Source: Candidatus Nealsonbacteria bacterium
GTDB taxonomy: Bacteria; Patescibacteriota; Minisyncoccia; Minisyncoccales; MHMH01
Length of the DNA stretch: 64,000 nt
Assembly (NCBI GenBank): GCA_016188865.1
Contig: JACPGX010000001.1
Location: 77,197-141,196 of the forward strand
Direction: 5' to 3'
Part shown: positions 4,605 through 56,431 of the stretch, piece by piece
Layout: each line of letters begins with the position of its first letter
How positions within the stretch are numbered: the stretch's first letter is position 1
Notes under the pieces: generated by a model
Database searches by the model: none
Told to the model about the DNA's origin: nothing
The model's input: only the letters and a program-made list of their open reading frames with translations
Made by a program: the position numbers and the translations under genes

Positions 4605-4683
4605 TTCGGGAGGTCCGAAACCGATTTAACACCCGGTGTTTCTCCGTCAACACCGGGTGTTGACGTTCGGTTTCGGACCTCAT
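4605..4683. repeat. nested-hairpin intergenic element, copy A
   Basis: Outer stem 4610-4624 / 4667-4681 (15 bp, perfect). Inner 13-mers AACACCCGGTGTT (4628-4640) and AACACCGGGTGTT (4649-4661). Linkers are TTTAAC and GACGT. Confidence 0.85.
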
Positions 4684-5423: not shown

Positions 5424-5506
5424 TTTCGATGTCCGATTTCCCGTTTAACCTCCGAGGTTAACGCGACAACCTCGGAGGTTGACGTTCGGGAAATCGGACA
5501 TCGAAA
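5424..5506. repeat. nested-hairpin intergenic element, copy B
   Basis: Outer stem 5426-5443 / 5487-5504 (18 bp, perfect). Inner 13-mers AACCTCCGAGGTT (5447-5459) and AACCTCGGAGGTT (5468-5480). Same TTTAAC and GACGT linkers and same 8-nt central loop length as copy A. Confidence 0.85.
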
Positions 5507-6729: not shown

Positions 6730-6741
6730 ATAATAATTTAA

Positions 6742-6790
6742 GGAGAACCGTTCTCCCGATATTACGATTAATTTTGGGAGAACGGTTCTC
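6742..6790. repeat. REP family 1 (GAGAAC-C/G-GTTCTC), inverted pair
   Basis: GGAGAACCGTTCTCC at 6742-6756 and GGAGAACGGTTCTC at 6777-6790. The second copy supplies the last codons (REPFSQN) of rdgB. Confidence 0.8.
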
Positions 6791-7385
6791 TCAAATATTG
6801 CGATAATAGGGGCAACGCTTTTTCTACGGCTTTTTTTCTGTGGGCGATCTTAGCTTCCTCTTCCATGGTGAATTCGCCCAAAACTTTGCTTACTCCCGGA
6901 ACGAAGAATAATGATCTGAAGGGGTACCCGGGAATAATTTTATCTATCGGCTTTTCCATTATAACTCCCCTCAAAATACCTTCAAAAGTGTTTATCTTCC
7001 CAAAAATATTTAAAGCTATGACCGTCTTCAATCGGGCGCCCCTCTGCTCGGCGGGAACGCCTTTAAGTTTGGCTAATGTCAAATCAATCAATTCTTGATC
7101 GGACGCCTCTCTGCCCAGCCAGCGCCTTGTTTTTACTCCCGGCTCGCCATCCAGATAATCTATTTCTAGTCCAGCATCTTCAGCCAATGTCGGAAAATCA
7201 ACGAATTGAGAATAAAATTTAACCTTTTTTATCGCATTTTCCTCAAAAGTTTTGCCGTCTTCTTCCACGCCGTCTTTAATATTTACGTCCTTTAACGTAA
7301 CCAGCTCCAGCGGCAGATTCTTCAAAAGAACCCTATACTCTAAAATCTTTCCCGGATTAGTAGTGGCAACCAATAATTTTTTCAT
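6768..7385 (-). CDS. rdgB: non-canonical purine NTP pyrophosphatase (RdgB/HAM1)
   Basis: N-terminal LLVATTNPGK and a size of about 200 aa. Confidence 0.85.
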   Translation of the reverse strand: MKKLLVATTNPGKILEYRVLLKNLPLELVTLKDVNIKDGVEEDGKTFEENAIKKVKFYSQFVDFPTLAEDAGLEIDYLDGEPGVKTRRWLGREASDQELIDLTLAKLKGVPAEQRGARLKTVIALNIFGKINTFEGILRGVIMEKPIDKIIPGYPFRSLFFVPGVSKVLGEFTMEEEAKIAHRKKAVEKALPLLSQYLREPFSQN

Positions 7386-8885: not shown

Positions 8886-9176
8886 ATGGGATTGAAAAGG
8901 GACTTTAGTGTAAAGTATGGTAATAGAGAGATTAAAAACCCAGTACTCCGAGGCGCCGTTGTCAGCGGAGCCATAGTCTTCGGAGGAGTTATGGTAATCG
9001 CGCTTATCCCCCTGGTGGTCATTTTAGCAATAGTTCTTTCTCCTATTATGCTCCCCCTTCACTTCATCTTAAAGGCGATGGGGAGAAAGGGATGCTACAG
9101 AAGAACCGAAACAGAAACCGAGTGCAAGATCGAGGTCACTATAGACAGGGAGTCATTCAGTAAAATGGCTCCCTGA
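8886..9176 (+). CDS. hypothetical small membrane protein (96 aa)
   Basis: GGGAGG upstream of the ATG. The central ~45 aa are hydrophobic (two predicted helices). Own promoter and terminator. Confidence 0.5.
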   Translation: MGLKRDFSVKYGNREIKNPVLRGAVVSGAIVFGGVMVIALIPLVVILAIVLSPIMLPLHFILKAMGRKGCYRRTETETECKIEVTIDRESFSKMAP

Positions 9177-9207
9177 GGAGACGATGCGTCAGGAGTGAAT
9201 GTCCAAA

Positions 9208-9241
9208 AGAAAACCCTTGAGATAGCATCAAAGGGGTTTTT
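9208..9241 (+). terminator. intrinsic terminator, cassette 1
   Basis: AAAACCCTTGA ... TCAAAGGGGTTTTT. Homologous to the terminator at 10068-10101. Confidence 0.7.
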
Positions 9242-9274
9242 ATATTGAGTTAAAAAACTAAACTCTGCAAAATA

Positions 9275-9293
9275 TTAAACACCGAGTGTTTAA
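9275..9293. repeat. palindrome TTAAACACCGAGTGTTTAA
   Basis: Related to the inner 13-mer (AACACC-C-GGTGTT) of the nested-hairpin element at 4628-4640. Confidence 0.6.
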
Positions 9294-9327
9294 CATTTGC
9301 TCTATATTTTGAAAATTTTGTATTAAT

Positions 9328-9356
9328 AATAGGGCGAGAACCGTTCTCGCCCTATT
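9328..9356. repeat. REP family 1 copy
   Basis: AATAGGGCGAGAACCGTTCTCGCCCTATT is a 29-nt palindrome around the GAGAACCGTTCTC core. Confidence 0.85.
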
Positions 9357-9382
9357 TTCAATTTACACAATTTTTCTCCCCG

Positions 9383-9420
9383 CGCCAAGTCTTGACAAAA
9401 TAAAAAATTGGGTGTAAGAT
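9383..9420 (+). promoter_or_regulatory. sigma70-type promoter, cassette 2
   Basis: TTGACA 9392-9397, 17-nt spacer, TAAGAT 9415-9420. About 55 nt are homologous to the cassette 1 promoter region. Confidence 0.65.
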
Positions 9421-9450
9421 ATTTTATTAGATGGAACATAGGGAGGAACA

Positions 9451-9630
9451 ATGGAACGGAAAGAAGTTAAATGGTCTTGTCATGCATGCGGCGCTAATGG
9501 AATAATCGAGTATACTCCCCCGGGAAACCCTTACCTTGTTGGCCACGAATGTGAGGAAGCTCATTCAAAAATATCGCCTGATTGCAAGAATCACATGCTG
9601 CGGTTTGATCCTGAAGAACTTGCGAAGTAA
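9451..9630 (+). CDS. hypothetical 59-aa Cys/His-rich protein (below the ORF-track cutoff)
   Basis: My translation: MERKEVKWSCHACGANGIIEYTPPGNPYLVGHECEEAHSKISPDCKNHMLRFDPEELAK. GGGAGG lies 4 nt before the ATG. Contains CxxC plus HxC and C. Confidence 0.5.
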   Translation: MERKEVKWSCHACGANGIIEYTPPGNPYLVGHECEEAHSKISPDCKNHMLRFDPEELAK

Positions 9631-9653
9631 GGGAGGTAAAGGAGGAGAAAACT

Positions 9654-9884
9654 ATGTCTAATGATGGAAAGATTTGGTGTATTTGCCAGAGATGCTCTTC
9701 CGAACTCTTAGGCATCCCGGACACTTCTTGCCCGGGGTGCGAGAAAGGAACCCTCGAGAAACACTGGCCGGAACACGTGAGTATTGAGGACGAGTATCCT
9801 AATGGAACGCACGTCCTAGTAATCCGTAAATCTCGCGGACCGATCAGTGGACATTACTGTACCGTACACAGGATAAAAGAATAG
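9654..9884 (+). CDS. hypothetical 76-aa zinc-ribbon-like protein
   Basis: AAGGAGGAG ribosome-binding site 6 nt upstream. CxCxxC ... CxxC cysteine pattern. GC visibly above flanking genes. Confidence 0.55.
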   Translation: MSNDGKIWCICQRCSSELLGIPDTSCPGCEKGTLEKHWPEHVSIEDEYPNGTHVLVIRKSRGPISGHYCTVHRIKE

Positions 9885-10085
9885 ATGGAAAAAATTATGT
9901 TGACCCCGGGAAGCATGGGGGTTGCTAAACACGCCATTGACCTTTTTGGCATAGAAAGGGTCGAGGTCGGCGCATGGCTGAATCCCGTACGGGTAAATGA
10001 TCTTTCAGAAGATGAAATCAAGTTTGCCGAAGAGTTCTTTCGGGAATATGGCATCGCAGTCACAAAAGAAAACCCCTCGAGATAA
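9885..10085 (+). CDS. hypothetical 66-aa protein
   Basis: The ATG directly abuts the upstream stop (TAGATG). The stop codon lies inside the terminator stem. Confidence 0.5.
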   Translation: MEKIMLTPGSMGVAKHAIDLFGIERVEVGAWLNPVRVNDLSEDEIKFAEEFFREYGIAVTKENPSR

Positions 10086-10101
10086 TATCAAGAGGGGTTT
10101 T
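10068..10101 (+). terminator. intrinsic terminator, cassette 2
   Basis: AAAACCCCTC ... GAGGGGTTTT followed by AT-rich sequence. Confidence 0.7.
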
Positions 10102-10112
10102 ATATTTAATAA

Positions 10113-10143
10113 AAATAGGTCGAGAACCGTTCTCGACCTATTT
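10113..10143. repeat. REP family 1 copy, 3' flank of the RAYT-like gene
   Basis: AAATAGGTCGAGAACCGTTCTCGACCTATTT is a 31-nt palindrome, 3 nt from the stop codon at 10146. Confidence 0.85.
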
Positions 10144-10145
10144 TC

Positions 10146-10868
10146 TTATTCTATGGCTACTTCTTTATAATCTGCTAATTCTTTTTTATGCTGCAGCCAA
10201 TCGTTAACAAATCTTTTAGCCTCTCTTATCTCACCGATTGTTTCTAATAAAAATTCCCTGCTGGTAACCGATGGAAAATTCTTATTTCCTAAATAATCCG
10301 GATAGCTCGACCAGCGATATTGTTCTTCAAGGAATTGTATTACTTTATTTAAATCTTTAATTTTAATTCCTTCTTCTTTCCATTTTGGACAAATAATCGC
10401 TACCGGATTGGTGTGAATATAAACGAAAACCGTTAATAACTGCCTATCATCTTTAACGTGAACAATCCTATATTTTCCTTGAAACAAATGCCCGCTTCTT
10501 TGATATTTCTTATTATAATAACCGCCGTATCCCGCACCGATTTTTCGCATAAATTTACTAATTCCGCCATCTTTGAGCTGTCTCACTAATAAATGCACAT
10601 GATTAGGCATTAAACAAAACGCCAAAATCTCAACTAAAAGCTTCCTCGGCTCTCTCCTTTCCCGCGGTAATGAGTCGAGAACCGTTCTCGACCTATTTAC
10701 GGTATTCCTGAAAGACGATAATACTGAAACTTCGTTATTAAACTCGAATAAATCATGGACCATTCGAAAATTATCTTTCTCCTCTCGAAAAAGTTTTAAA
10801 CCTTCTATGGCGCGGATAACTATATGGTATATTTCTCCGTTAGATAATGGCGGACGTTTTATCGGCAT
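10146..10868 (-). CDS. IS200/IS605-type Y1 HUH transposase-like protein (RAYT-like)
   Basis: YHIVIRA, HUH motif LMPNHVHLLV, catalytic-Tyr region VYIHTNPV. I prefer the ATG at 10868 (MPIKRPP), because the track start at 10898 reads through a REP copy. Confidence 0.7.
   Translation of the reverse strand: MPIKRPPLSNGEIYHIVIRAIEGLKLFREEKDNFRMVHDLFEFNNEVSVLSSFRNTVNRSRTVLDSLPRERREPRKLLVEILAFCLMPNHVHLLVRQLKDGGISKFMRKIGAGYGGYYNKKYQRSGHLFQGKYRIVHVKDDRQLLTVFVYIHTNPVAIICPKWKEEGIKIKDLNKVIQFLEEQYRWSSYPDYLGNKNFPSVTSREFLLETIGEIREAKRFVNDWLQHKKELADYKEVAIE
10672..10698. repeat. REP family 1 copy inside the RAYT-like CDS
   Basis: GAGTCGAGAACCGTTCTCGACCTATTT is the exact reverse complement of the 10872-10896 core. 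It is translated in frame as NRSRTVLDS. Confidence 0.8.
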
Positions 10869-10871
10869 AAT

Positions 10872-10898
10872 ATAGGTCGAGAACGGTTCTCGACTCAT
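10872..10898. repeat. REP family 1 copy, 5' flank of the RAYT-like gene
   Basis: ATAGGTCGAGAACGGTTCTCGACTCAT, in opposite orientation (GG centre) to the 3' flank copy. Confidence 0.85.
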
Positions 10899-14732: not shown

Positions 14733-14767
14733 AATAACGCAATCAATAATTGCCAGCTAATTTGTAG
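14733..14767 (-). other. 3' strand of the 23S processing stem
   Basis: AATAACGCAATCAATAATTGCCAGCTAATTTGTAG is complementary, with a few mismatches, to 19210-19242. Confidence 0.7.
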
Positions 14768-15029
14768 ATAAAAAGCTTTACCTATTAGTACTCCTCGGCT
14801 TAACCCATTGCTGGGCTTACACCTAGAGCCTATCAACCCTGTCATCTACAGGGGGTTAATGAATCCTAATCTTGGGGTGGGCTTCGAGCTTAGATGCTTT
14901 CAGCTCTTATCCCTTCCCGACTTAGCTACCCAGCAATGCTCCTGGCGGAACAGCTGGTACACCAGAGGTCAGTTCCTCGAGGTCCTCTCGTACTGTCGAG
15001 GACTCCCCTCAAGATTCGACGCCTGCGGT

Positions 15030-15060
<31 letters not shown>

Positions 15061-15141
15061 GAACCCAGCTCACGTACCTCTTTAACATCGAGGTGCCGAA
15101 CAGGGCCGTTGATATGGACTCGCGGGCCCTACTAGCCTGTT

Positions 15142-16024
15142 CATAGTTAATTTTAGTTAACCATAGACTATATCTTCACCCGCCTAAATATAAATTTTTG
15201 GCGGGGGCGGCGTATGAACTAAATTTTAATTTTAGTTCTCACCCATTTAAGGGATCAGTCGTTACGGGGTCAAGAAGAAATTTTATAATTAAATGTTGGC
15301 AGAATAAATGATCGTATTGTTTGGTGCAACTTAATGGTTTCTTTTGGCGAAAAATAAAGAGCGAATCCTTTTTGTTTTTTATCTAATATTCTGCACAAAA
15401 CATGAAAATTATTTTCAATTGCTGTTTTGGCAATTTCGGCCTCTTTTTCTTGAACTCTCCCTAAATATAGATAGCTTACTTTATCGCGATGATAATAATA
15501 GCCATCATCCATATACCAAACGGCTAAAGCTAAAGAATCTTTTAAGAGATTGCTAAGCTGTTCTGGTATGCGTTTTTTTCCTTCTTTGTAAAATATTGCT
15601 CGCCATTTTCCCAATTCCGGAGTGGAATTGGACTGGTGGCGCCAATATTTATATAACTTGCCGCTTATGGGATGTTTTCGTTCAAGATATTTTGGCTCGC
15701 CTTGGAATAATTTTGGAAATTTGTTTATTTTCCAGAAAAGATAATCTTTTTGATTATCGCCATGTTCAAAACGCAAACGTGAATTTTTCTCTCCAGTTTT
15801 CTGCAAATAAGCATCTCCCAAAATTGTTCCTATAAGAATTGATTTTTGCTCTCTATTAAACTTCACAAATTTTTCTTCTGACTTCCCACGGTGTTGAAAG
15901 AACTCAAAACCTTTTTGTCAAAGGAAGACCAGTTCTTGTTTCACCGTTATAAGCCACTTTAAACTATATCTTATTACTAAGACATAGAGACAACAACCTC
16001 TGTGATTATTATATCACGAGGTTC
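15142..16024 (-). mobile_element. group I intron at 23S position equivalent to E. coli 2449
   Basis: The exons read CCGGGGAU | AACAGGCU. The 5' exon ends in U and the intron ends in G. Core elements include GAAGAUAUAGUC (S-like). Contains a homing endonuclease ORF. Confidence 0.8.
15270..15866 (-). CDS. LAGLIDADG homing endonuclease, two-motif (monomeric type)
   Basis: Motifs LIGTILGDAYL and LAVWYMDDGYY. GTG start. Intron-encoded. Confidence 0.85.
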   Translation of the reverse strand: MKFNREQKSILIGTILGDAYLQKTGEKNSRLRFEHGDNQKDYLFWKINKFPKLFQGEPKYLERKHPISGKLYKYWRHQSNSTPELGKWRAIFYKEGKKRIPEQLSNLLKDSLALAVWYMDDGYYYHRDKVSYLYLGRVQEKEAEIAKTAIENNFHVLCRILDKKQKGFALYFSPKETIKLHQTIRSFILPTFNYKISS

Positions 16025-16532
16025 ATCCCCGGGGTAACTTTTGGTTGATGATCTTCTGCGGTTCTACGAACCACAGTCGGTTCACTAAGTTCGAGTTTCC
16101 TCTCTGCGCGGCATATCCGCCTTGCAGTCAAGCCGGCTTGCGCCTTTACGCTATCAGTCCGATTTCCATCCGGACCTAGCCGACCTTATAAACTTCTCCG
16201 TTACTTTTTAGGAGAAAAGCGCCCCACTTAAACTGCCCACCAGACACTGTCTCCCCTTGCGGGGGTTAGGATGATGGATTCAAAAGACGGGTGTTTCATT
16301 GTTGGCTCCATGCCTCCCGAAAGAAGCACTTCAAAGCCTACCCGCTACACTACGCATTCAAAACCAAAATTCAATATCTAGCTACAGTAAAGCTCCCGGG
16401 GTCTTTCCGTCTAGCCGCAGGTAACCGGCATCTTTACCGGTATTGCATTTTCACCGGGCAACTCCTGGAGACAGTTCCCAAGTCGTTAAACCTTTCATGC
16501 GGGCCAGAACTTACCTGGCAAGGGGTTACGCT

Positions 16533-17249
16533 CAATCTGTTATATCCACAATACATTTGTGGAATTCTTTATGTCGCCATAAAGTTCGGACTATATCTTC
16601 CCGCCCAAATATTCAATTTTCGGCGGGTTCGGCGTATAGTCTCTGAGGATTCTTTAATTTATCGGAATTTTCTATTATTCATCTCTCTCACCATCAATCT
16701 TATTTTAGCCAATCCTTCCTCTCGGAGATGTCTTCCTTTTCCCATCATTTTTACAATTTTAGTAAAAATATGGAAATCTTTTTTCTTGGCAGATAATAAT
16801 TGATATTTTTCGAAAAATGGAATAATTTTCGTGAGTAAATCTACACGATTACGTACTACGTATTTTAGAAGATGTTCGTGATGGTTATCGTGTCTTTTAT
16901 TCAGATAGATTGCTCCGCAATTAAAGAAATTTTTAATTTTCTCTATTGCGGCTTTACTTTTCATTTCTTGCGTAATTACAAACTCTGGAAATACTTGCCA
17001 TTTTAGGCGCAATCTTGATTTGGGATGTTTAAAGAAACTTACAGTAAAACATCCTTCTCCATCAACAAACCCAACTATCCATCCAATAAATTTAAGCCTT
17101 TCCTGCTGATTGTCTGCACCGGATGATTTTTTACTTAACATAATGGATGGTAAGGTATATTACTACCTTACTCTATTATATCAAAGTAGCACCGGATACA
17201 CCAGATTTTCCAGCATATAGCCGAATTTTACTAAAGCAGTGCGTTATCT
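16533..17249 (-). mobile_element. group I intron at 23S position equivalent to E. coli 1931
   Basis: The exons read ...UAACUAUAACUGUGUUAAAGU | AGCGUAACCCCUUGCC. The intron ends in G. Core elements are CAGAGACUAUACGCC (R-like) and GGGAAGAUAUAGUCCGAAC (S). Confidence 0.8.
16659..17141 (-). CDS. LAGLIDADG homing endonuclease, single-motif (homodimer type)
   Basis: Motif WIVGFVDGEGCF. 160 aa. Intron-encoded. Confidence 0.85.
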   Translation of the reverse strand: MLSKKSSGADNQQERLKFIGWIVGFVDGEGCFTVSFFKHPKSRLRLKWQVFPEFVITQEMKSKAAIEKIKNFFNCGAIYLNKRHDNHHEHLLKYVVRNRVDLLTKIIPFFEKYQLLSAKKKDFHIFTKIVKMMGKGRHLREEGLAKIRLMVREMNNRKFR

Positions 17250-19209
17250 ACTTTAACACAGTTATAGTTACTGCGGACGTTCACTGGCGCTTAGGACGCT
17301 CAGCTCACACCTTGCGGCATGAACCGGCATCTTTAACGTTCCAGCACTGGTCAGGTTTCGGCCCCTATACATCCTCTTGCGAGTTGAGCAGGGACCTGTG
17401 TTTTTGATAAACAGTCGCTTGGGATACTTTTGTTGCAGCCTCAAATCCTTGCGGACTGAGGCAGGCCTTATCGCGAACTTACGGCCACTTTTTTGCCGAG
17501 TTCCTTCAGGAGCTTTCACCCGTTCACCTTGGCGCATTTACGCCTGCCTACCTGTGTCGGTTTGCGGTACGGAACCAGTTAAATAGTATACTTAAAACTT
17601 TTCTTGGCAATCTTATTTTTAAGACTTCCGCTTGCGCGGAATAAAAATCCAATAATTTTCTCAAAAATTTTGACTGCGTCATCTTAAGATTATTTAACCG
17701 GTGGGCCGGAATATTAACCGGCTATCCATCTCTCGCTACCATTGGTAACAAAATTAGGACCGCCTAACCCTTGGCTGAATGTCATTGCCAAGGAAACCTC
17801 AGGCTTACGGTGTCCCGCGCTTTCAGCGGGATTGTGGTTACTCAAGCCAATATTCTCACTTCATAACGCTCCATGGTTGGTCACCCTTCCACTTCACAGC
17901 ATTATGAACGCTCCCCTACCCCGAGCATTCAATAAATTGAATACTCAGTCTTATCTTCGGTGCTGAGCTTAGTCCCGTATATCTTCGACGCGGGATCCCT
18001 TAGTTAGTAAGCTATTACGCACTTTTTAAAGGATAGCTGCTTCTAAGCTAACCTCCTAACTATCAAAGGAACCCCACTTCCTTGTAAACACTTAGCTCAT
18101 CTTAGGGACCTTAGATTAAGATCTGGGCTGTTTCCCTCATGACCTCGAAGCTTAGCCCTCGAAGTCTTACTATCCGCCTAAATTTTCTGGCATTCGGAGT
18201 TTAGTAGGAATACCTGGAGAAACTCCAAGATATTCCTTCTAGTGCTCTACCTCCAAAAAATAATGATGGCGGACGCTAGCCCTAAAGCTATTTCGGGGAG
18301 AACCAGCTATTACCAAGCTCGTTTAGGTTTTCTCTTCTTACCACAACTCATCCAAGAGTATTGCACGGCTCACTGGTTCGGACCTCCCCTCGCATTTCTG
18401 CGAAGTTCATCCTGGTTATGGTAAGCTCGCTTGGCTTCGGGTCTTACGCGCGCTCCTAATCGGGCTATTAACCCTTGCTTTCACTTTGCCTTCCTCCGTT
18501 TAACGGAGTTAGACTTGGAGCACACATAAACTCGTTGGCTCGTTCTGCAAAAAGCACGACGTCACCCTAAACCCTTGCGGGTCGCGGGCTCCGTCTCGTT
18601 GTGGGTAAAACGGTTTCAGGTTCTATTTCACCGCCCTTAACGGGCTACTTTTCACCTTTCCCTCACGGTACTGGTTCACTATCGGAGATATCGTAGTATT
18701 TAGCCTTGGCCGAGTAGTTCGGCCGGATTCCTTCAAAGCTTTCGTGCTTCGAAGTACTTAAGAAAAGTATCAAGGAGCATAAAGCCGTTTTCGCTTACGG
18801 GACTATTACCCTCTATGGTTGTCCTTTCCAGGAACATTCAACTAACGAAGCTTCACCTAAATGTTCTCCCTCCGGATTGCTCCGGACAATACTCCCTTGC
18901 AACACCACTCAATGCTTCTTGCGAAGCATAAAATGGTTTAGGCTGTTGCCCTTTCGCTCGCCGCTACTAAGGCAATAAAATTATTTTTCTTTTCCTCTGG
19001 GTACTATGATGTTTCGCTTCCCCAGGTTCGCCCCAGATACAATACTGCATCTGGCGGCCGAGTTTTAGCTCGGCCCTGTTTCCAGATTCGGAAATTCCCG
19101 GATCAAAGGTTGAGAGTCACCTCCCCGAGACTTATCGCAGACTCCCCACGTCCTTCATCGCCTCGATATCCCAAGGCATCCACCGTTTACCCTTAAATGC
19201 AATTTTTAC

Positions 19210-19242
19210 CTACATTAGCTAGCAATTAATAATTGCGTTATT
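19210..19242 (-). other. 5' strand of the 23S processing stem
   Basis: CTACATTAGCTAGCAATTAATAATTGCGTTATT pairs with 14733-14767. Confidence 0.7.
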
Positions 19243-20543: not shown

Positions 20544-21734
20544 ATGCCTACGCATGATACTGCCGAATTGCTGGGTTTTTCTGAAAAGAATCCTTACACG
20601 GCCGTAAGAACGCAAGTTAACCTTGATGAAATCATCTTACTTCCCCAGCCGAGGAAAACCTTTGAAGAAATTCCCGAACTGGGAATGAGCATTTTATTCA
20701 ACAAACTGATTTACTTGCCAGTATTGGCTTACTTTAACAAAGAACAATTTAAAAGATATTTATCAATACTGAGCGAGCTGTGGCGCGTTCCGCTTTCAAT
20801 AGAAAATTATCTGTTTTTTGGCGTTCACGATATAGAAAAAGGGGAAATTTATTACAAAGTCCTAATAGACGGTGAACGCAGAGTAAGGGCTTGCCGCTAT
20901 TATCAGCAGCACGGCTGCGATGAGCACGCTGATGTAAGGGGCTGCTATAAACTCCACTTTGGCAATGAAAAAGTTGAAGCGACTCTTTGCCTCAACATTT
21001 CTCCGATCAAGGCGCTAGGATTGCAAAGCACGGCCAACAGCCACAACCGCGTCCCAGCCCACGAAGATGCCGTATTTTTGGATCAATTTTTTAGAATGAT
21101 TCTAATATGCGACCAGAAATACCCCATAACAAGATTTGCTAAGTTAGTCGGAAGAAGCCCGGAAACCATCAGAAATGCCATAAAGTTTTGCCTGCTCCCC
21201 GAAGAAATTAGAAATATGGTGCCCGCGGAAATTCCTTACGGTATTGCTTGCGAAGTGGCCCGCCTTCACAATTTCGGAGTTTCAGAAGCAGAGCTAAAAG
21301 GCTGGGTGATGATGACGATCGTACAAAAACAAAAAATACCAGATTTCAGAAAAGTGGTGAATGATTTTATGAGGCAGCAGCAATCCGGACAGACAACTCT
21401 TTTCGATCTATTCTCTGATAAACAAAGAGCAGAACTTGAAAAACGCGGCTATAAGTTGATTGTTTCCCGCCACATGATTAATGCCGTCTGGCAGTGGATA
21501 AATTATTTTGATACTCTTTTGTGTTTATTCGAAGAAGGCAAATTGGGTAAGGAAGATTCTCCTTTCTCAATTAAAAGCCCCCTGAAAGTTTTCAAAACTT
21601 TGATTGAAAAAGAGAAAAAACTCCTTCCTCATTTAGAATGCTTATTGCCGGAAAAAAAATATAAAGAAGCAAAAATTACGCTGGAAAAAGCAGAATCTCT
21701 GATTATCCGACTCGAATCAATATCACAACAATAA
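20544..21734 (+). CDS. divergent ParB/Srx-domain protein (ParB-like, no parA neighbour)
   Basis: LIDGERRVRA arginine-finger box, and an HTH-like GRSPETIRNAIKFCLLPEEIRNMV. The Cys/His cluster CRYYQQHGCDEHADVRGC follows immediately after the arginine-finger box. Confidence 0.6.
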   Translation: MPTHDTAELLGFSEKNPYTAVRTQVNLDEIILLPQPRKTFEEIPELGMSILFNKLIYLPVLAYFNKEQFKRYLSILSELWRVPLSIENYLFFGVHDIEKGEIYYKVLIDGERRVRACRYYQQHGCDEHADVRGCYKLHFGNEKVEATLCLNISPIKALGLQSTANSHNRVPAHEDAVFLDQFFRMILICDQKYPITRFAKLVGRSPETIRNAIKFCLLPEEIRNMVPAEIPYGIACEVARLHNFGVSEAELKGWVMMTIVQKQKIPDFRKVVNDFMRQQQSGQTTLFDLFSDKQRAELEKRGYKLIVSRHMINAVWQWINYFDTLLCLFEEGKLGKEDSPFSIKSPLKVFKTLIEKEKKLLPHLECLLPEKKYKEAKITLEKAESLIIRLESISQQ

Positions 21735-26302: not shown

Positions 26303-27454
26303 TCAAATCTTAAAATATTTTAACAGGCACTTTTGAAATTTTCCCAAGTTTTTATTTTTAATGCGGAAGCCGGCTGCTTGCGGATGCCCTCCGTATGTTT
26401 CAAGATATTTTGAGCAATAAATCATGGGTTTTACCCCGTCAATACCCTTAGGGGTTCTGACAGCTCCTTGAGAGTCATTTTTTCTCTGGCTATATAAAAA
26501 AGTTGGTTTTTTATAAGTGTTGCATATTCGGGAAGCGGCGGGAGCGGCTATTAAAATAGGCCAATCTTTATCTCCCTCAAAAATAATCGGCTCTTCTATT
26601 TTCTTTAGAGCTCTCTTTTCAACCTCCTCCGTTGCTACTTTAATCCTTTGCTGGCGGATATAAGATTTCTCTGAAAGTTCGACTGCCAAAGATTCTGCTC
26701 CTTCTAACGAAGGCGAAGTTAGAAGAAAATATGCTTCATTAATATGCTCTTTCGTTTCACCGGCATGGCAAGCAGAAATTATCTTTTGCGCCATAGGTCG
26801 AGAACCGTTCTCGCCCTCTTTTGCGAAGACTTGGAGGCCGGGACGGAAGGTACTTTTTAAAGAAGCTAATCCTTCGGTTATAATTTTTATATTATCTTCT
26901 TCCTCTATCATCATATCGGCTATGGTAGCTAAAGCTGCCAGCTCTAAAAAATTACCTCTCAAGGCTGGGGTCATTTTTTTATCCAAAAGAGCTTCGGATA
27001 ATTTAAAAACAACTCCGGCTGCGGCAAATTCCTTGAAAGGATACTTATCTCCTTTTTGTTTCGGATTTACTATAATTTTTGCATCTGGCAGTTTATTTAA
27101 AACCTTATGGTGGTCAACAACCATCACTTCAAAACCAAGTTTTTTGGCTAATTTTATTTCCTTAAAATTTCCTATACCCAAATCTACGGTAATGAATAAA
27201 GCCGGAGAATATTTTTTCAAATAATTTAAAGCGTCTTCATTCACGCCGTAGCCTTCTGTCTCCCTATCCGGAAAATATATTGCCGATACCTTGCCGCCAA
27301 GATTGATAATGGCTTCTTTTAAAATAATAACCGAACTAACGCCGTCCATGTCGGCGTCTCCATAGAGAATAATTCTCTCTTTTTTCTTTATGGCTTTTTT
27401 TATCCTCTCTGCCGCTTTTTTTAGATTTTTGATTTGGGACTTGACAGATTTCAT
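26303..27454 (-). CDS. DHH-family phosphoesterase, RecJ-like (short)
   Basis: GDADMDGVSS, DRETEGYG, VVDHH and GGHPQAAG motifs. Confidence 0.75.
   Translation of the reverse strand: MKSVKSQIKNLKKAAERIKKAIKKKERIILYGDADMDGVSSVIILKEAIINLGGKVSAIYFPDRETEGYGVNEDALNYLKKYSPALFITVDLGIGNFKEIKLAKKLGFEVMVVDHHKVLNKLPDAKIIVNPKQKGDKYPFKEFAAAGVVFKLSEALLDKKMTPALRGNFLELAALATIADMMIEEEDNIKIITEGLASLKSTFRPGLQVFAKEGENGSRPMAQKIISACHAGETKEHINEAYFLLTSPSLEGAESLAVELSEKSYIRQQRIKVATEEVEKRALKKIEEPIIFEGDKDWPILIAAPAASRICNTYKKPTFLYSQRKNDSQGAVRTPKGIDGVKPMIYCSKYLETYGGHPQAAGFRIKNKNLGKFQKCLLKYFKI
26794..26817. repeat. REP family 1 copy inside the RecJ-like CDS
   Basis: ATAGGTCGAGAACCGTTCTCGCCC, translated in frame as EGENGSRPM. 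Confidence 0.8.
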
Positions 27455-34440: not shown

Positions 34441-34482
34441 GAGGTCCGACCTCCTCTCAAATTTGAGTGGAGGTCGGACCTC
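34441..34482. repeat. REP family 2 hairpin
   Basis: GAGGTCCGACCTCC-T-CTCAAA|TTTGAG-T-GGAGGTCGGACCTC is a 42-nt palindrome. Confidence 0.85.
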
Positions 34483-34488
34483 CAAATA

Positions 34489-38787: not shown

Positions 38788-39120
38788 TTAAATCGCTGTT
38801 TCTAATGGATAGATGTCCATAGCGATTTCTTCGTAAGGATGAACTTTTTTTATCGCCCTTAAAACTTTTTTCAATTTGCTCCTCTCGCATCTGGCCTCTA
38901 TTCTTTCTTCGAAAACCTGTTCCAATTTACCCGCCCTGCCGATTGCCGGCTTGGCTCCTTTTTTGGGCAGAAACCTGCCCTTTCCTTTGGCCGAAAAACT
39001 ACAAAATGAATAGTTCCCTATTTTCCCGGCTCCAGCTTTTCCCAGCGCCTTTCTCACCGCATCAGCATGCGTCTCAGGCGTAAATACTACAATTTTTACA
39101 AATTTATATTTATTTTCCAT
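38788..39120 (-). CDS. NIF3-insert/YqfO-C-terminal-like small protein (COG3323-type)
   Basis: FVKIVVFTPETHADAVRKAL..AGAGKIGNY..C.F and HPYEEIAMDIYPL. I prefer the ATG at 39120, because the longer track ORF overlaps secA by about 125 nt. Confidence 0.55.
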   Translation of the reverse strand: MENKYKFVKIVVFTPETHADAVRKALGKAGAGKIGNYSFCSFSAKGKGRFLPKKGAKPAIGRAGKLEQVFEERIEARCERSKLKKVLRAIKKVHPYEEIAMDIYPLETAI

Positions 39121-41470
39121 GACACCTTTTATATTTTTTCCCTGAACCGCACGGACAAGGGTCGTTTCTGCCCGCCTTTTGACTGTTGGACTTACGAAAT
39201 CCAACGGTACCGTTGGATTTCGTAAGTCCAACATCTTGCGGCTTAAGAGAAACTCGTAAAATTGTTTCGGCTATATTGGATTCAATGGTATCCAATAATG
39301 TTTTAAACATTCTGTGACCTTCGGTTTTGTATTCAACTAAGGGATCGCGTTGGCCGTAAGCCCGAAGGCGGACGGAATCGCGCAAGGCCTCCATCTCTTC
39401 CAAATGATTCATCCAAAGCATATCTAATGTCCTCAAAGCGACTATTTTAGCGACTTGATTAAAATTTTCGCCTAATTCTTTTACTTTTTCTTCGCAACCT
39501 TTAAGTTTTTCTTTCCAATCTTCTACTCGAAGAAACTCTTTTCTTTTTTTATAAATAACTTCTCGGTGTTTATTCAAAACATCGTCGTAATCCAAAAGGT
39601 GTTTTCTTAAATCAAAATTCAGACCTTCAATTTTTGACTGGGCCGATTCTATAGCGCCGGAAATCATACCCGCCTCAATGGGCTGATCTTCAGGGATTTT
39701 TAAAACATTCATCAATGATTTTATTTTCTCTCCCCCGAAAATCCGCATAACATCATCTTCTAGAGAAATGAAAAACTGGGAAGAACCCGGGTCTCCCTGC
39801 CTGCCCGATCTGCCGCGAAGCTGATTATCAATGCGCCTTGCTTCATGGCGCTCGGTGCCAATAACATGAAGGCCTCCCGATTCTCTGACCATTCGACTTC
39901 GCTCGGGGTTATCTTCGGGGTTGCCTCCGAGTATAATATCCACTCCTCGGCCTGCCATATTTGTGGCAATAGTTACGGCCCCTAATTTTCCTGCTTGAGC
40001 GATAATTTCTCCTTCTTTTTCATGATTTTTAGCATTCAAAATCTGGTGAGATACTCCTTCTATGTTTAAAAGCTTTCCCAAGTATTCATTTTTTTCAATC
40101 GAAGTAGTGCCCACCAAAACCGGCTGGCCATTTTCGTGCCTTTCTTTTATTGCTCTGACTACTGCCTTAAACTTTCCTTCTTCTGTTTTGTAAATTCTGT
40201 CGGGCAATTCTTTTCTAATCATCGGCTTATTGGTAGGAACTGCGATAAGATCCAGGTTATAAACTTTATCAAATTCTTCAGCCGAAGTAGCGGCAGTGCC
40301 GGTCATGCCAGCCAATTTCTTATACATCCTGAAATAATTCTGAAAAGTAATAGAGGCTAAGGTTAAAGATTCCGGCTGAACCGCAACCCCCTCTTTCGCC
40401 TCGACTGCCTGATGCAGCCCGCCCGACCATCGACGACCGGGCATTAGTCTGCCCGTAAACTCGTCAACAATAATCACCTCTCCGCTCTGGACCACGTAAT
40501 CCCTGTCCTTTTTGAACATCACTTCCGCCCTTAGGGCCTGCTCCAAATGATGAACGTATTTTATGCCTTTTTCTTCATATATATTTTCTTGACCCAAAAT
40601 CTTTTCTATCTTGCCAATCCCTTGCTCGGTTAAAGTAACTGCTTTCATTTTCTCGTCAATCTCGTAATCAGTTTTAGAATCTAATTTAGGAATAATTTTA
40701 GAAAATTCCTGATACCATTTTGATGATTCCGTGTCGGGAGCCGAAATTATCAACGGAGTTCTGGCCTCATCGATTAAAATAGAATCAACCTCGTCAACGA
40801 TTGCATAATTAAACCCGCGCTGGACCTGCTGATTTAAATCATAAGCCATATTGTCTCTTAAATAATCAAACCCGAACTCGTTATTGGTGCCGTAAGTAAT
40901 ATCAGCCGCATATGCATCTTTCCTGGAGCATGGCCTCAAATAATCATCAATAACTTTGAATCCGCCAAGCGCATCTCTTTCTTTGTCCTTATTGGAGTCA
41001 GGGTCATACACATATGAAGCATCATGGATGATACAGCCCGTTGATAATCCTAATGCATGATAAATTTGTCCCATCCAGACAGCGTCTCTTTTAGCTAAAT
41101 AATCGTTAACGGTAACAACATGTACTCCCTCGCCTCCCAGGGCATTCAAATAAATAGGCAAAGTTGCTGTTAGAGTTTTCCCTTCTCCAGTTTTCATTTC
41201 AGCAATCTTGCCTTCGTGCAAAACCATTCCGCCAATTAACTGCACATCAAAATGCCGCTGATTGAGCGTTCTTTTTGCCGCCTCCCTTACAAGCGCAAAC
41301 GCCCTCTCTAAGTTAATCGCTTGACGAAGTTTATCGGTCTCCCCTTTAAGCTGCTCAGCGGAAAAACCTTCAAATTCTTTTTCGAAGCTGTTTATCCTAT
41401 CAACCGCCGGCTGAAGTTTTTTCACATATTTTTCATTGGCATCGCCAAAAATTTTATTTAAAATTGGCAT
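39110..41470 (-). CDS. secA: preprotein translocase ATPase SecA
   Basis: DEAD-like motor motifs and a C-terminal zinc finger CPCGSGKKYKRCHG. Confidence 0.95.
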   Translation of the reverse strand: MPILNKIFGDANEKYVKKLQPAVDRINSFEKEFEGFSAEQLKGETDKLRQAINLERAFALVREAAKRTLNQRHFDVQLIGGMVLHEGKIAEMKTGEGKTLTATLPIYLNALGGEGVHVVTVNDYLAKRDAVWMGQIYHALGLSTGCIIHDASYVYDPDSNKDKERDALGGFKVIDDYLRPCSRKDAYAADITYGTNNEFGFDYLRDNMAYDLNQQVQRGFNYAIVDEVDSILIDEARTPLIISAPDTESSKWYQEFSKIIPKLDSKTDYEIDEKMKAVTLTEQGIGKIEKILGQENIYEEKGIKYVHHLEQALRAEVMFKKDRDYVVQSGEVIIVDEFTGRLMPGRRWSGGLHQAVEAKEGVAVQPESLTLASITFQNYFRMYKKLAGMTGTAATSAEEFDKVYNLDLIAVPTNKPMIRKELPDRIYKTEEGKFKAVVRAIKERHENGQPVLVGTTSIEKNEYLGKLLNIEGVSHQILNAKNHEKEGEIIAQAGKLGAVTIATNMAGRGVDIILGGNPEDNPERSRMVRESGGLHVIGTERHEARRIDNQLRGRSGRQGDPGSSQFFISLEDDVMRIFGGEKIKSLMNVLKIPEDQPIEAGMISGAIESAQSKIEGLNFDLRKHLLDYDDVLNKHREVIYKKRKEFLRVEDWKEKLKGCEEKVKELGENFNQVAKIVALRTLDMLWMNHLEEMEALRDSVRLRAYGQRDPLVEYKTEGHRMFKTLLDTIESNIAETILRVSLKPQDVGLTKSNGTVGFRKSNSQKAGRNDPCPCGSGKKYKRCHGK

Positions 41471-54917: not shown

Positions 54918-56431
54918 ATAATAATTTCTTTTATAACTTTGCCGTCCATATCTTCCGGAATCGACACATTAAACATAGATAGAATGGTAGGAGTTAGATC
55001 TAGAACGTTCAATTCTCCGATATCGCCTGCGTTTTTTATGTTAGGACCGAAGGCAAGAAAAATACCTTCTCTTATTATCATGTGGCCGCCGCGAGCAACT
55101 TTCGCTACCCGCGTTATCGATCTTTTTCTAGTAAGGGAAAAGGGCAAAAAACCGGTCGGCAAAAATTTGCTGTTTGGCAAATAGGCAATGTCCGGAAATT
55201 TTTCTACGCCCTCGCCGCTGAATATCTCTTCTCTCTTCCAAACATATTTAATGATTTTTTCGCCATTTTTGTCTTTCAACTCTCTCATTTTTTTCATTAT
55301 TTCCGACCTCACTTCTTCGTAATCTCTTTTTAAATTCTCTTTGAATATCTTAATCCCCCAAAAATCGTGATTGCTTGCCACGGTTTTTGACCAATCAACC
55401 CCCATTGCCTTTGACTCGGAAGAATGCTTTTTAAGACGCCAGCTTCGATCAATCTTAAAGGGCTGGTTTACTTCTTTTTTATTTTTTTTATTAATTATGC
55501 TTTTAATGCTGTCCAATAAGTAATAGAGAAATCCGAGATAGCGATACCTGTAAGCTCCGGGTATTTTTATTAAAAAATTATTTATTGCCTGCACTATCCA
55601 CTGTTGGATTATATTGCCTTTCAACTTCAAGTAGCCTTCTTTTTTCAGCCATGATTTTGGATAAAACTCGTAAATCGGCACTGCGTCAAAGCCGTGGTCG
55701 CTCATAATAATGATATTCGCATCGGGATTATTTTCCATAACATCATTAAGGTTTTTATCTATTTCCTTAAAAAATCTTGAAAGATATTCTTCCTCCCCCC
55801 AAAAATCATGTTGTATGGCATCCGATTCGTCTACCCAAAATAGAACAAAATCAAAGGCGGCATCCTTAATGACGTTCCTAATGATTTGGTATTTTTGTTT
55901 AGCGCTTTCAAGAAAAAAGTTGAACAACTCTTTTTCGCCTTCCATTGTCTTTTCGCCCGAAATTAATTTCAGAAATGTCTCTCTACCCAGATGGAATCCC
56001 CTCACTCTCTCTTTAAATTCTTTAGGATAAGTATATTCATCTTTTTCTGAAACAGAAAAGCCGGAAAGCATAACTCCCTCAACTGGAGTAGGCGGATGGG
56101 TGGTCGGCAAATTTAAAATGGCTGATTTAAGGCCGTAATTTCCTAAAATCTCCCAGATAGCCGGATTATTGATTCTTATTTTGTCGTATCTTGTCACATC
56201 GCAATCAAAACATGAAAAATCAAGACTCCCCCATTTCGCGGGATTTTTTCCCGTATAAAAAGAAATTATTGCAGTGCTGCTTCTGCAGGGAATAGAACTC
56301 ATCAGAGTGCCATGGGATCCCTTATCCAATATTTTTTTAAACGCAGGCAAAAGCCCTTTTTCTGCCAAAGGCTTTAATGATATCCATGTGCCTCCATCTA
56401 TGCCAAAAACTATTGTTTTATGTTTTTCCAT
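54914..56431 (-). CDS. alkaline-phosphatase-superfamily enzyme (type I phosphodiesterase/nucleotide pyrophosphatase-like), soluble
   Basis: N-terminal FGIDGGTW metal site region and SDHGF. Confidence 0.6.
   Translation of the reverse strand: MEKHKTIVFGIDGGTWISLKPLAEKGLLPAFKKILDKGSHGTLMSSIPCRSSTAIISFYTGKNPAKWGSLDFSCFDCDVTRYDKIRINNPAIWEILGNYGLKSAILNLPTTHPPTPVEGVMLSGFSVSEKDEYTYPKEFKERVRGFHLGRETFLKLISGEKTMEGEKELFNFFLESAKQKYQIIRNVIKDAAFDFVLFWVDESDAIQHDFWGEEEYLSRFFKEIDKNLNDVMENNPDANIIIMSDHGFDAVPIYEFYPKSWLKKEGYLKLKGNIIQQWIVQAINNFLIKIPGAYRYRYLGFLYYLLDSIKSIINKKNKKEVNQPFKIDRSWRLKKHSSESKAMGVDWSKTVASNHDFWGIKIFKENLKRDYEEVRSEIMKKMRELKDKNGEKIIKYVWKREEIFSGEGVEKFPDIAYLPNSKFLPTGFLPFSLTRKRSITRVAKVARGGHMIIREGIFLAFGPNIKNAGDIGELNVLDLTPTILSMFNVSIPEDMDGKVIKEIII

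Follow-up and report, generated by a model that had tools for sequence, protein, structure and literature searches.

A Y1 transposase-like gene family of Patescibacteria with a cognate palindrome at three fixed positions

The 64,000-nt stretch of contig JACPGX010000001.1 analysed here (the window; 39.7% G+C) derives from a metagenome-assembled genome of Candidatus Nealsonbacteria, which belongs to the Patescibacteria or candidate phyla radiation (CPR). It carries a gene for a Y1/HUH tyrosine transposase-like protein that is accompanied by copies of one palindrome at its 5′ end, within its reading frame and at its 3′ end. Relatives of this gene form a Patescibacteria-wide Y1 family in which a cognate palindrome is found at three fixed positions, including one within the reading frame, and all copies evolve in concert; this arrangement is a new element. 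A search of the literature on REP-associated tyrosine transposases (RAYTs; REP, repetitive extragenic palindrome) and REPINs found no description of a Y1 family with a concerted palindrome at three positions. With a probability of about 0.65, we interpret the locus as a REPtron-like unit composed of a domesticated class 2 Y1 (HUH) single-stranded DNA (ssDNA) endonuclease/transposase gene and its cognate palindrome of 27-33 nt. The gene and its palindromes, the latter given without strand, are as follows.

10146..10868, minus strand: Y1/HUH tyrosine transposase-like gene (class 2 TnpA-Y1, RAYT/TIRYT-like), 240 aa
10872..10898: 5′ copy of the palindrome, 27 nt, ending 3 nt ahead of the ATG; on the gene strand ATGAGTCGAGAACCGTTCTCGACCTAT; outer stem imperfect
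10670..10696: internal copy, in frame in the coding sequence, encoding NRSRTVLDS (aa 58-66)
10115-10141: 3′ copy, ATAGGTCGAGAAC[C/G]GTTCTCGACCTAT, a perfect palindrome
10112..10144: 3′ copy including its A4/T4 extension (AAAATAGGTCGAGAACCGTTCTCGACCTATTTT), a 33-nt perfect palindrome located 1 nt past the stop codon

In the palindrome at the window gene, the inner stem is G/A-rich, the centre measures 1 nt and the outer stem is AT-rich. A reading made from the sequence alone (the sequence-only reading) had placed the gene between oppositely oriented copies of the palindrome, and this was confirmed by the centre base, which is C in one flanking copy and G in the other. The internal copy is the reverse complement of the 5′ copy over 27 of 27 positions, and the imperfect outer stem is common to both. 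The 3′ copy lies between convergent genes, is flanked by symmetric A4/T4 runs and was scored as terminator-like on the plus strand in a scan. In the AlphaFold2 model of the protein, the loop encoded by the internal copy was predicted with low confidence between a helix (residues 30-42) and a strand (79-86), just before the HUH strand (90-97); residues 51-71, the palindrome-encoded segment, had pLDDT values below 50. The peptide NRSRTVLD was seen again in homologues from other genomes, inside an otherwise variable stretch.

The open reading frame (ORF) 10146-10898 on the minus strand opens at an ATG at 10898 within the 5′ hairpin. Because all homologues start with MPIK, the true start is the ATG at 10868. 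The resulting 240-aa protein matched Pfam Y1_Tnp (PF01797) with 44.5 bits (cut-off 23, E = 2e-11) and contains the two hallmarks pointed out by the sequence-only reading, the HUH motif NHVHLL (aa 89-94, nt 10587-10604, context CLMPNHVHLL) and the catalytic tyrosine motif YIHTNP (aa 150-155, nt 10404-10421, context FVYIHTNP, Tyr150). H90, H92 and Y150 were invariant among 61 homologues and N89 nearly so. The protein combines a domain above the Pfam gathering score, the HUH motif and a single catalytic tyrosine, which are the characteristics of the Y1 superfamily. The AlphaFold2 model (pLDDT 72, pTM 0.74) was compared with known structures using Foldseek. The best match was 4er8_A, the E. coli RAYT with its REP hairpin (E = 7e-5, TM 0.60 on the target), followed by the ISDra2, IS608 and IS200 transposases; 4er8, 2xo6 and 2a6m were all matched at probability 1.0.

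According to Quentin et al. 2018 (PMC6006769), class 2 TnpA-REP proteins exhibit the context Y---NP, whereas class 1 IS200 proteins exhibit Y---Q. YIHTNP has the Y---NP context, and the window protein therefore belongs to class 2. Fold and motifs together place it with the class 2 TnpA-Y1 proteins (RAYT/TIRYT-like) and not with IS200. Furthermore, NHVH, LFQG, YIHTNP, WSSY and the length of 240 aa match the signature of subclass 2.1 (Table 1 of PMC6006769), which appears to fit best by signature and length in a comparison of motifs, not of subclass profiles. A DnaA_C or helix-turn-helix (HTH) domain (Bac_DnaA_C, HTH_23, HTH_28) was detected by Pfam at E <= 1 neither in the C-terminal 84 aa nor in five full-length relatives. 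As is typical of class 2, the gene has a low copy number, diverged paralogues and vertical inheritance. No second Y1 gene copy was found in the 64-kb window, and the homologues P0010, P0067 and P0070 are 65-72% identical to the window protein. A TnpB domain was absent from the ten window ORFs of 240-438 aa; one of them, ORF 20544-21734, was without any Pfam match. The class 2 context and the absence of TnpB from these ten ORFs speak for the proposal of the sequence-only reading.

To compare the layout across the family, 80 loci with relatives were taken from the GTDB species genomes of Patescibacteria and the 74 genes with both flanks were tested. The longest exact word shared between two regions was scored as positive at a length of at least 12 nt, using a 120-nt 5′ flank, and mismatched-locus pairings served as control. 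The 5′ flank shared such a word with the interior of the gene in 52 of 74 cases (control 1/74), the 3′ flank with the interior in 43 (control 3/74) and the two flanks with each other in 57 (control 2/74). Most shared words were 20-30 nt long and coincided with the palindrome itself. As in a REPtron, the gene is flanked by a cognate palindrome specific to the paralogue. The distance from the end of the 5′ hairpin to the ATG had a median of 19 nt (range -2 to about 90 nt), and the 3′ hairpin started at a median of 6 nt after the stop codon. The interior copy was located at aa 41-77 in all loci except two (L010 and L037); a further interior copy near aa 155-165 was present in L037 and L072. At this loop the interior copy is kept in ~70% of the loci over about 35-100% protein identity, while the genes of the ~30% of members without it are still intact.

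The sequence of the palindrome varies from locus to locus. A shared pattern consists of an inner stem G-R-R-G/A-T-C/Y and an AT-rich outer stem, with a median stem of 14 bp, and 28 of 48 hairpins form a perfect dyad with a 1-nt centre. In the paralogue P0070 (Logan contig, L001), a hairpin of wholly different sequence, TAACGAAGAACGACATCGTTA, takes these three places, namely 5 nt ahead of the ATG, at codons about 66-75 and directly after the stop codon. Inverted 5′ and internal copies might constitute an invertible switch; this idea was discarded, as no inverted N-terminal segment appeared at 138 N-terminal matches in the loci examined.

Some relatives, Yanofskybacteria among them, have flanking hairpins whose outer arms are exact DnaA boxes (TTATCCACA). 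This was observed in L063 (9957-9995 and 10704-10742), L075, L072 and L038 (630-665); the window has none. In total, 22 DnaA boxes were located within 150 nt of the genes (84 kb) compared to 78 in the 1.11 Mb of all loci. The boxes in the hairpin arms may connect to the DnaA-like HTH of subclass 2.1 proteins. The contig of L038 ends at an internal hairpin.

The gene order MreC-PBP2-GreA-[Y1 gene]-LysRS-SerRS is kept across five genomes, in which the identity of the Y1 protein ranges from 78% down to 40%.

L084: full MreC-to-SerRS gene order, protein identity 78%
L085/L086: MreC-to-SerRS gene order, protein identity 73%
L087/L088: MreC-to-SerRS gene order, protein identity 78%
L070: gene order shared from the gene that precedes PBP2 to the one that follows SerRS, protein identity 40%

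In L070, the neighbouring proteins have diverged about as much as the Y1 protein. The gene has been resident between greA and lysS since before these Nealsonbacteria/Parcubacteria lineages split. RAYTs are known to be of low copy number and vertically inherited (PMC5581495), and copy number and synteny of the window gene match this pattern, not that of an insertion sequence. The proposal of the sequence-only reading that the transposase is domesticated is supported by the greA-gene-lysS synteny in five genomes and by the lack of a second copy in the window.

Although the gene stays in place, its hairpins change, and they change together. Read in the order 5′, internal and 3′ site, the centre bases are C/G/G in the window; L084 has G/G/G and L087 has A/A/T. 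All three sites of L085 have stems changed to GTCGGGAT…. L070 harbors an unrelated hairpin, GCGGGGAC-A-GTCCCAGC, in which one and the same G·A mismatch is found in each of the three copies, with the 5′ copy as the reverse complement. That mismatches and unpaired bases are common to the sites points to copying from site to site and not to independent selection of each stem. Moreover, single hairpins flip orientation between orthologues. In L066 (6093-6113), one hairpin is fused directly to codon ~68 of a 5′-truncated Y1 gene, past the stop codon of an upstream ORF. The segment between the 5′ and the internal hairpin appears to have been lost precisely, which would make the hairpins sites of rearrangement; the product fits an enzyme-catalysed event and slippage between repeats alike.

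Further copies of the palindrome are present elsewhere in the window. The search with TCGAGAACSGTTCTCGA at up to 2 mismatches gave 5 matches in the window compared to 0 in 100 shuffles, and the 13-nt core GAGAAC[C/G]GTTCTC occurred 7 times. Apart from the gene, 4 extra copies were found in 64 kb where 0 were expected:

9328..9356: solo copy with compensated stem changes (GGGCGAGAAC/GTTCTCGCCC); intergenic and terminator-like, downstream of ORF 8886-9176
26793..26819: intragenic copy, 25/27 match, in frame (EGENGSRPM) in a DHH/RecJ-like gene (26303-27454, minus strand)
6741..6792: inverted doublet of short-stem relatives, GGAGAACCGTTCTCC ... GGGAGAACGGTTCTCTC, between the serS start and the stop codon of a Ham1-family gene

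The members of the doublet lie at 6743 and 6778, and the second one (6778) overlaps the final codons of the Ham1-family gene (…REPFSQN*). The core was recovered at every position from which the sequence-only reading had listed dispersed copies. One of them, given as 10672-10698, is not a dispersed copy; it is the internal copy at 10670-10696, in frame in the coding sequence.

Outside the window, 27 solo cognate copies were detected in 973 kb from the 66 loci with a recognisable cognate word. Ten of them were within 1.5 kb of the gene (20% expected, p = 0.034). The triplet stands alone in the orthologous loci L084, L087 and L088 and in L006 and L007, which have the same core. A blind scan of JGI metagenome contigs with GTCGAGAACNGTTCTCGAC yielded 71 hits and two more full triplets at -28/+175/+725 relative to the ATG. 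About 49 low-GC contigs contained the core, only 5 of which had a Y1 gene beside the match. After de-duplication, 29 matches were inside ORFs of at least 90 aa and 16 outside. According to Pfam, the host genes of the intragenic matches encode TsaD, FemAB, LepA, PheRS-beta, KsgA, an MBL-fold protein and RNA 3′-phosphate cyclase. On low-GC contigs, the genes for TsaD, FemAB, the MBL-fold protein and the RNA cyclase contain palindromes with this core that are at least 29 nt long. Zero-extension hits may have arisen by chance; an example is REPFS in ValRS, which we take to coincide with the conserved ExPF motif. About 22 of the 71 hits came from high-GC contigs without an extended palindrome and are unrelated. 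Taken together, the palindrome family is dispersed yet sparse and often intragenic in these gene-dense genomes. REPs located likewise within replication and repair genes were described by De Nocera et al. 2013.

The copy in the RecJ-like gene was considered as an insertion and rejected, since it adds no length and close homologues also carry ENGSR/ENxSR. Its orthologue in L090 retains a 15-nt palindrome and the one in L089 a decayed one. Long palindromes with the core GTCGAGAAC-N-GTTCTCGAC were in frame in the genes for TsaD (L097, L100, L136, L137, L152) and FemAB (L118/L130, L120/L123/L129), and likewise in essential genes of L145/L155 and L140. In TsaD, for example, a 31-nt palindrome encodes KFGREQFSTKL. 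In FemAB, the palindrome is located at two distinct positions in two lineages. The high-GC contigs (L099, L102, L112, L113, L122, L139, L144 and similar, 60-70% G+C) contain the same 19-mer in a conserved context, tcgagcttGTCGAGAAC.GTTCTCGACnnacgcttc, presumably as an unrelated conserved sequence of other bacteria.

With the REPtrons formed by RAYT/TnpA-REP genes (E. coli YafM, PDB 4ER8; Pseudomonas, Stenotrophomonas), the window family has in common the Y1/HUH fold with one catalytic tyrosine and Y---NP, a flanking palindrome of its own, one palindrome family per paralogue, extra genomic copies, low copy number and vertical inheritance. It is unlike them in its long perfect palindromes with a 1-nt centre, in the 240-aa protein with a helical C-terminal extension and in the in-frame copy that is conserved within the gene. 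Bertels Group 1 and TIRYT are the counterparts of TnpA-Y1 subclass 2.1 (De Nocera 2013; Quentin 2018, PMC6006769). The family resembles this subclass in the motifs NHVH, FQ, Y[IV]H.NP and SS (WSSY), in a median length of about 238 aa and in flanking repeats of low genomic abundance, some of which are self-complementary. The TIRYT motif GGGGWSAS was found in 7 of 110 family hairpins. Subclass 2.1 has been described as having no REP-like hairpins nearby and a distal DnaA_C/HTH domain (PMC6006769), whereas in the window family hairpins are the rule and Pfam detected no HTH. The term 'Parcubacteria' has 0 occurrences in the text of PMC6006769, and Patescibacteria are unmentioned there.

Subclass 2.4 of Cyanobacteria and Bacteroidetes is similar in that a cognate REP resides in the transposase gene, keeps the frame and occupies a peripheral variable region. 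In contrast to the site in subclass 2.4, the in-gene palindrome of the window family is upstream of the HuH motif, between helix A and the next strand. Moreover, the motifs of subclass 2.4 differ (WQ, YIxNNP), its REPs have GTAG feet, and neither three-site covariation nor long-term concerted change has been described for it. By analogy, the window family may be likened to IS200/IS605 TnpA (IS608, ISDra2, IS200) in its fold, catalytic chemistry and subterminal hairpins flanking the gene. These elements are characterized by Y---Q, a core-only protein of ~150 aa, many near-identical copies and often tnpB, and their hairpins are imperfect, located on one strand and accompanied by guide tetranucleotides. 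Elements of the type RPE-1 (RPE, Rickettsia palindromic element) are roughly 100-150 bp long. In comparison, the units of the window family are shorter (27-31 nt) and look length-neutral. Rickettsia RPEs, among which De Nocera 2013 also describes the short intragenic RPE-4 and RPE-6 repeats, and the intragenic REPs of De Nocera 2013 are similar as short in-frame palindromes in housekeeping genes, including those for DNA replication and repair, of gene-dense genomes.

Several results weigh against a REPtron-like unit. GT[AG]G is the 5′ tetranucleotide at the foot of canonical REPs of RAYT subclasses 2.2, 2.4, 2.5, 2.7 and 2.8. The hairpin foot in the window is AATAG/GTCGAG instead, and only 7 of 110 flanking hairpins of the family had GT[AG]G within 6 nt of the foot. 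The sole NCBIfam match, NF047646 (REP_Tyr_transpos), scored 45.2 bits, which is under the equivalog cut-off of 80 bits. No match was obtained with the family profile against the PDB sequences (E <= 0.01), and kinship to RAYT structures appears to be visible at the level of the predicted fold alone. Dispersal is very low in the sequence covered, where the few solo copies do not demonstrate a 'REP' in the usual sense of tens to hundreds of copies per genome. The orientation of the hairpins is variable, with every combination seen (5′ and 3′ copies inverted in 34 loci and direct in 18), which would not be expected of an enzyme that reads one strand only, as is the case for IS608. Loops with and without the internal copy are of similar length (39 and 37 aa, p = 0.21), and the intragenic copies elsewhere appear length-neutral relative to homologues, which simple cut-and-paste does not explain. 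The classic RAYT/REP arrangement assumed by the sequence-only reading holds for a RAYT-like gene between its own palindromes, but not for the foot and the profile score, and the dispersal observed is sparse.

The internal copy was also considered as a simple length-adding insertion. This was not established by the loop lengths given above, and the pattern of the loops is suggestive: the five shortest (28 aa) all lack the internal copy, while a sixth 28-aa loop and a 23-aa loop carry it.

On balance we favor the REPtron-like unit, in which the protein, by analogy with E. coli TnpA-REP and IS608 TnpA, would bind the hairpin form on ssDNA and would cut and rejoin beside it. Such cutting and rejoining in vitro is known for E. 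coli TnpA-REP and for two enzymes whose cognate REPs are perfect palindromes (PMC8266576). Either the action of the enzyme or short-tract recombination or template switching among the three nearby copies would keep the copies identical, so that the palindrome sequence could drift between lineages while the three copies stay alike. The same process might now and then place copies at other sites as well, among them loops of housekeeping genes that permit an insertion-free change of sequence. The internal copy would be accommodated by a disordered loop at the protein surface that precedes the HUH strand. Most likely it is an old REP in the reading frame, tolerated by the protein and maintained by homogenisation. 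For subclass 2.4, tnpA-REP genes with REPs in frame are known (PMC6006769). Catalysis, the binding of hairpins on ssDNA, the way in which copies are made and any part in regulation are inferred; the internal copy may have an autoregulatory role.

An extension of this model, which we regard as speculative, is that the three hairpins form a functional self-targeting circuit, in which the in-gene and flanking copies either act in autoregulation, as substrates or operators, or provide a protected master copy, and that length-neutral patch replacement then spreads palindromes into the coding loops of essential genes (TsaD, FemAB, RecJ-like). If true, such a circuit would let enzyme and hairpin co-evolve and would reseed other sites, and length-neutral patch replacement would be a mode of REP dissemination not described before.

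It is also conceivable, though unlikely, that the three palindromes are selected cis-regulatory sites, at which the encoded protein or a host factor binds and shuts off expression of the gene. The internal copy would then be functional, and the palindromes could act either as operator-like sites at the promoter, inside and at the end of the gene (cf. lac O1/O2/O3 and gal OE/OI) or as binding and nicking hairpins extruded during transcription. Such sites would account for an interior copy that persists at the same loop and is identical to the flanks, for identity reaching even the unpaired centre base, for the many perfect dyads with a 1-nt centre and for a 5′ copy adjoining promoter-like -10 elements and the ATG. 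The exact DnaA boxes in the outer arms of the L063, L075 and L072 hairpins and the DnaA-like HTH of the related subclass 2.1 proteins (PMC6006769) point in the same direction. However, Pfam found no C-terminal HTH, the 5′ hairpin is located at widely differing distances from the ATG, the same palindromes reside within unrelated housekeeping genes, and members without the interior copy keep intact genes.

We consider it improbable that the hairpins are mRNA structures conserved independently of the enzyme and acting at the 5′ end as a stabiliser or a block to translation, inside the gene as a pause site and at the 3′ end as a terminator. The terminator-like scores of the 3′ copy and the 9328 copy and the position of the 5′ copy in or near the 5′ untranslated region would be in line with such structures. 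However, a G·U signature is missing, with 13 G·T and 17 A·C mismatches on the sense strand, and hairpins that flip orientation between orthologues are hard to reconcile with a role in mRNA. Moreover, the hairpin sequence covaries with the paralogue beyond what keeping a fold entails, and identical mismatches among the copies indicate copying and not selection for pairing.

Finally, an ordinary active IS200-type insertion sequence, with the flanking hairpins as left and right subterminal ends and the other copies as remnants of excision and insertion, would suit the small unit of about 790 bp, the hairpins just beyond the ORF and the structural match to IS608 and ISDra2 transposases, but is very improbable given Y---NP in place of Y---Q, 240 instead of about 150 aa, a single copy and no TnpB among the ORFs checked in the window, homologues that are just 65-72% identical and include P0070 with its different hairpin, the same chromosomal site occupied in five genomes to 40% identity, and the variable hairpin orientation.

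Several other observations were made in the window. A module that combines a terminator-like hairpin (CCCYTSGAGATA..ATCAARGGGG) with an AT-rich spacer and the REP is present in two copies, at 9204-9356 and 10063-10141; the copy at 9204-9356 holds a 74-bp insert. The module pair brackets three small ORFs without assigned function (9451-9630, 9654-9884 and 9885-10085). At orthologous loci, the interval between the gene and lysS is free of ORFs in L084, and in L085 and L087 it contains one called small ORF each. The variable segment bounded by these hairpins (9204-10141) is the sole hint behind the earlier idea that the transposase might mobilise neighbouring 'cargo'.

A 50-nt perfect palindrome (TGTTGGACTTACGAAATCCAACG GTAC CGTTGGATTTCGTAAGTCCAACA) at 39184-39233, at the 5′ end of the gene region 39110-41470, is an inverted, REPIN-like doublet of the 'GGACTTGCGAAGTCC'-type hairpin that flanks other Y1 paralogues (L025, L035, L045). 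Palindromes of similar style, with a G-rich stem and a 1-3-nt centre, are located at 4645-4665, 9275-9293, 5445-5461, 34468-34484 and 56966-56984. Examples are CGTCAACACCGGGTGTTGACG, TTAAACACCGAGTGTTTAA, TGGAGGTCGGACCTCCA and GGAGAGGTTCGACCTCTCC, the last of which is within ORF 56418-58085. They may be the hairpin families that go with further Y1 paralogues in this genome.

Furthermore, the 23S rRNA match on the minus strand (14765-19210) spans 4446 nt compared to the 2925-nt model, which corresponds to ~1.5 kb of insertions, and contains the ORFs 15270-15866, 16291-16803 and 16659-17141. The insertions are probably rRNA introns or homing endonucleases, both of which are common in CPR. L086 alone among the loci has called genes preceding mreC; a LAGLIDADG ORF is located there, ~1.2 kb upstream of mreC.

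The function of RAYTs and the way REPs are copied have been open questions for more than a decade, and the Patescibacteria family provides a compact natural test case. Enzyme and three substrate copies are united in a 790-bp unit, and orthologues at one chromosomal site display hairpins that change together. The co-evolution of hairpin and enzyme thereby becomes open to direct test, as does the question whether a RAYT targets its own gene or uses it for self-regulation. For annotation, it follows that such 'transposase' calls in CPR genomes denote resident genes and not active insertion sequences, and that assemblies can break at the hairpins of the family, as in L038. In these very small, gene-dense genomes, the palindromes end up in frame in essential genes.

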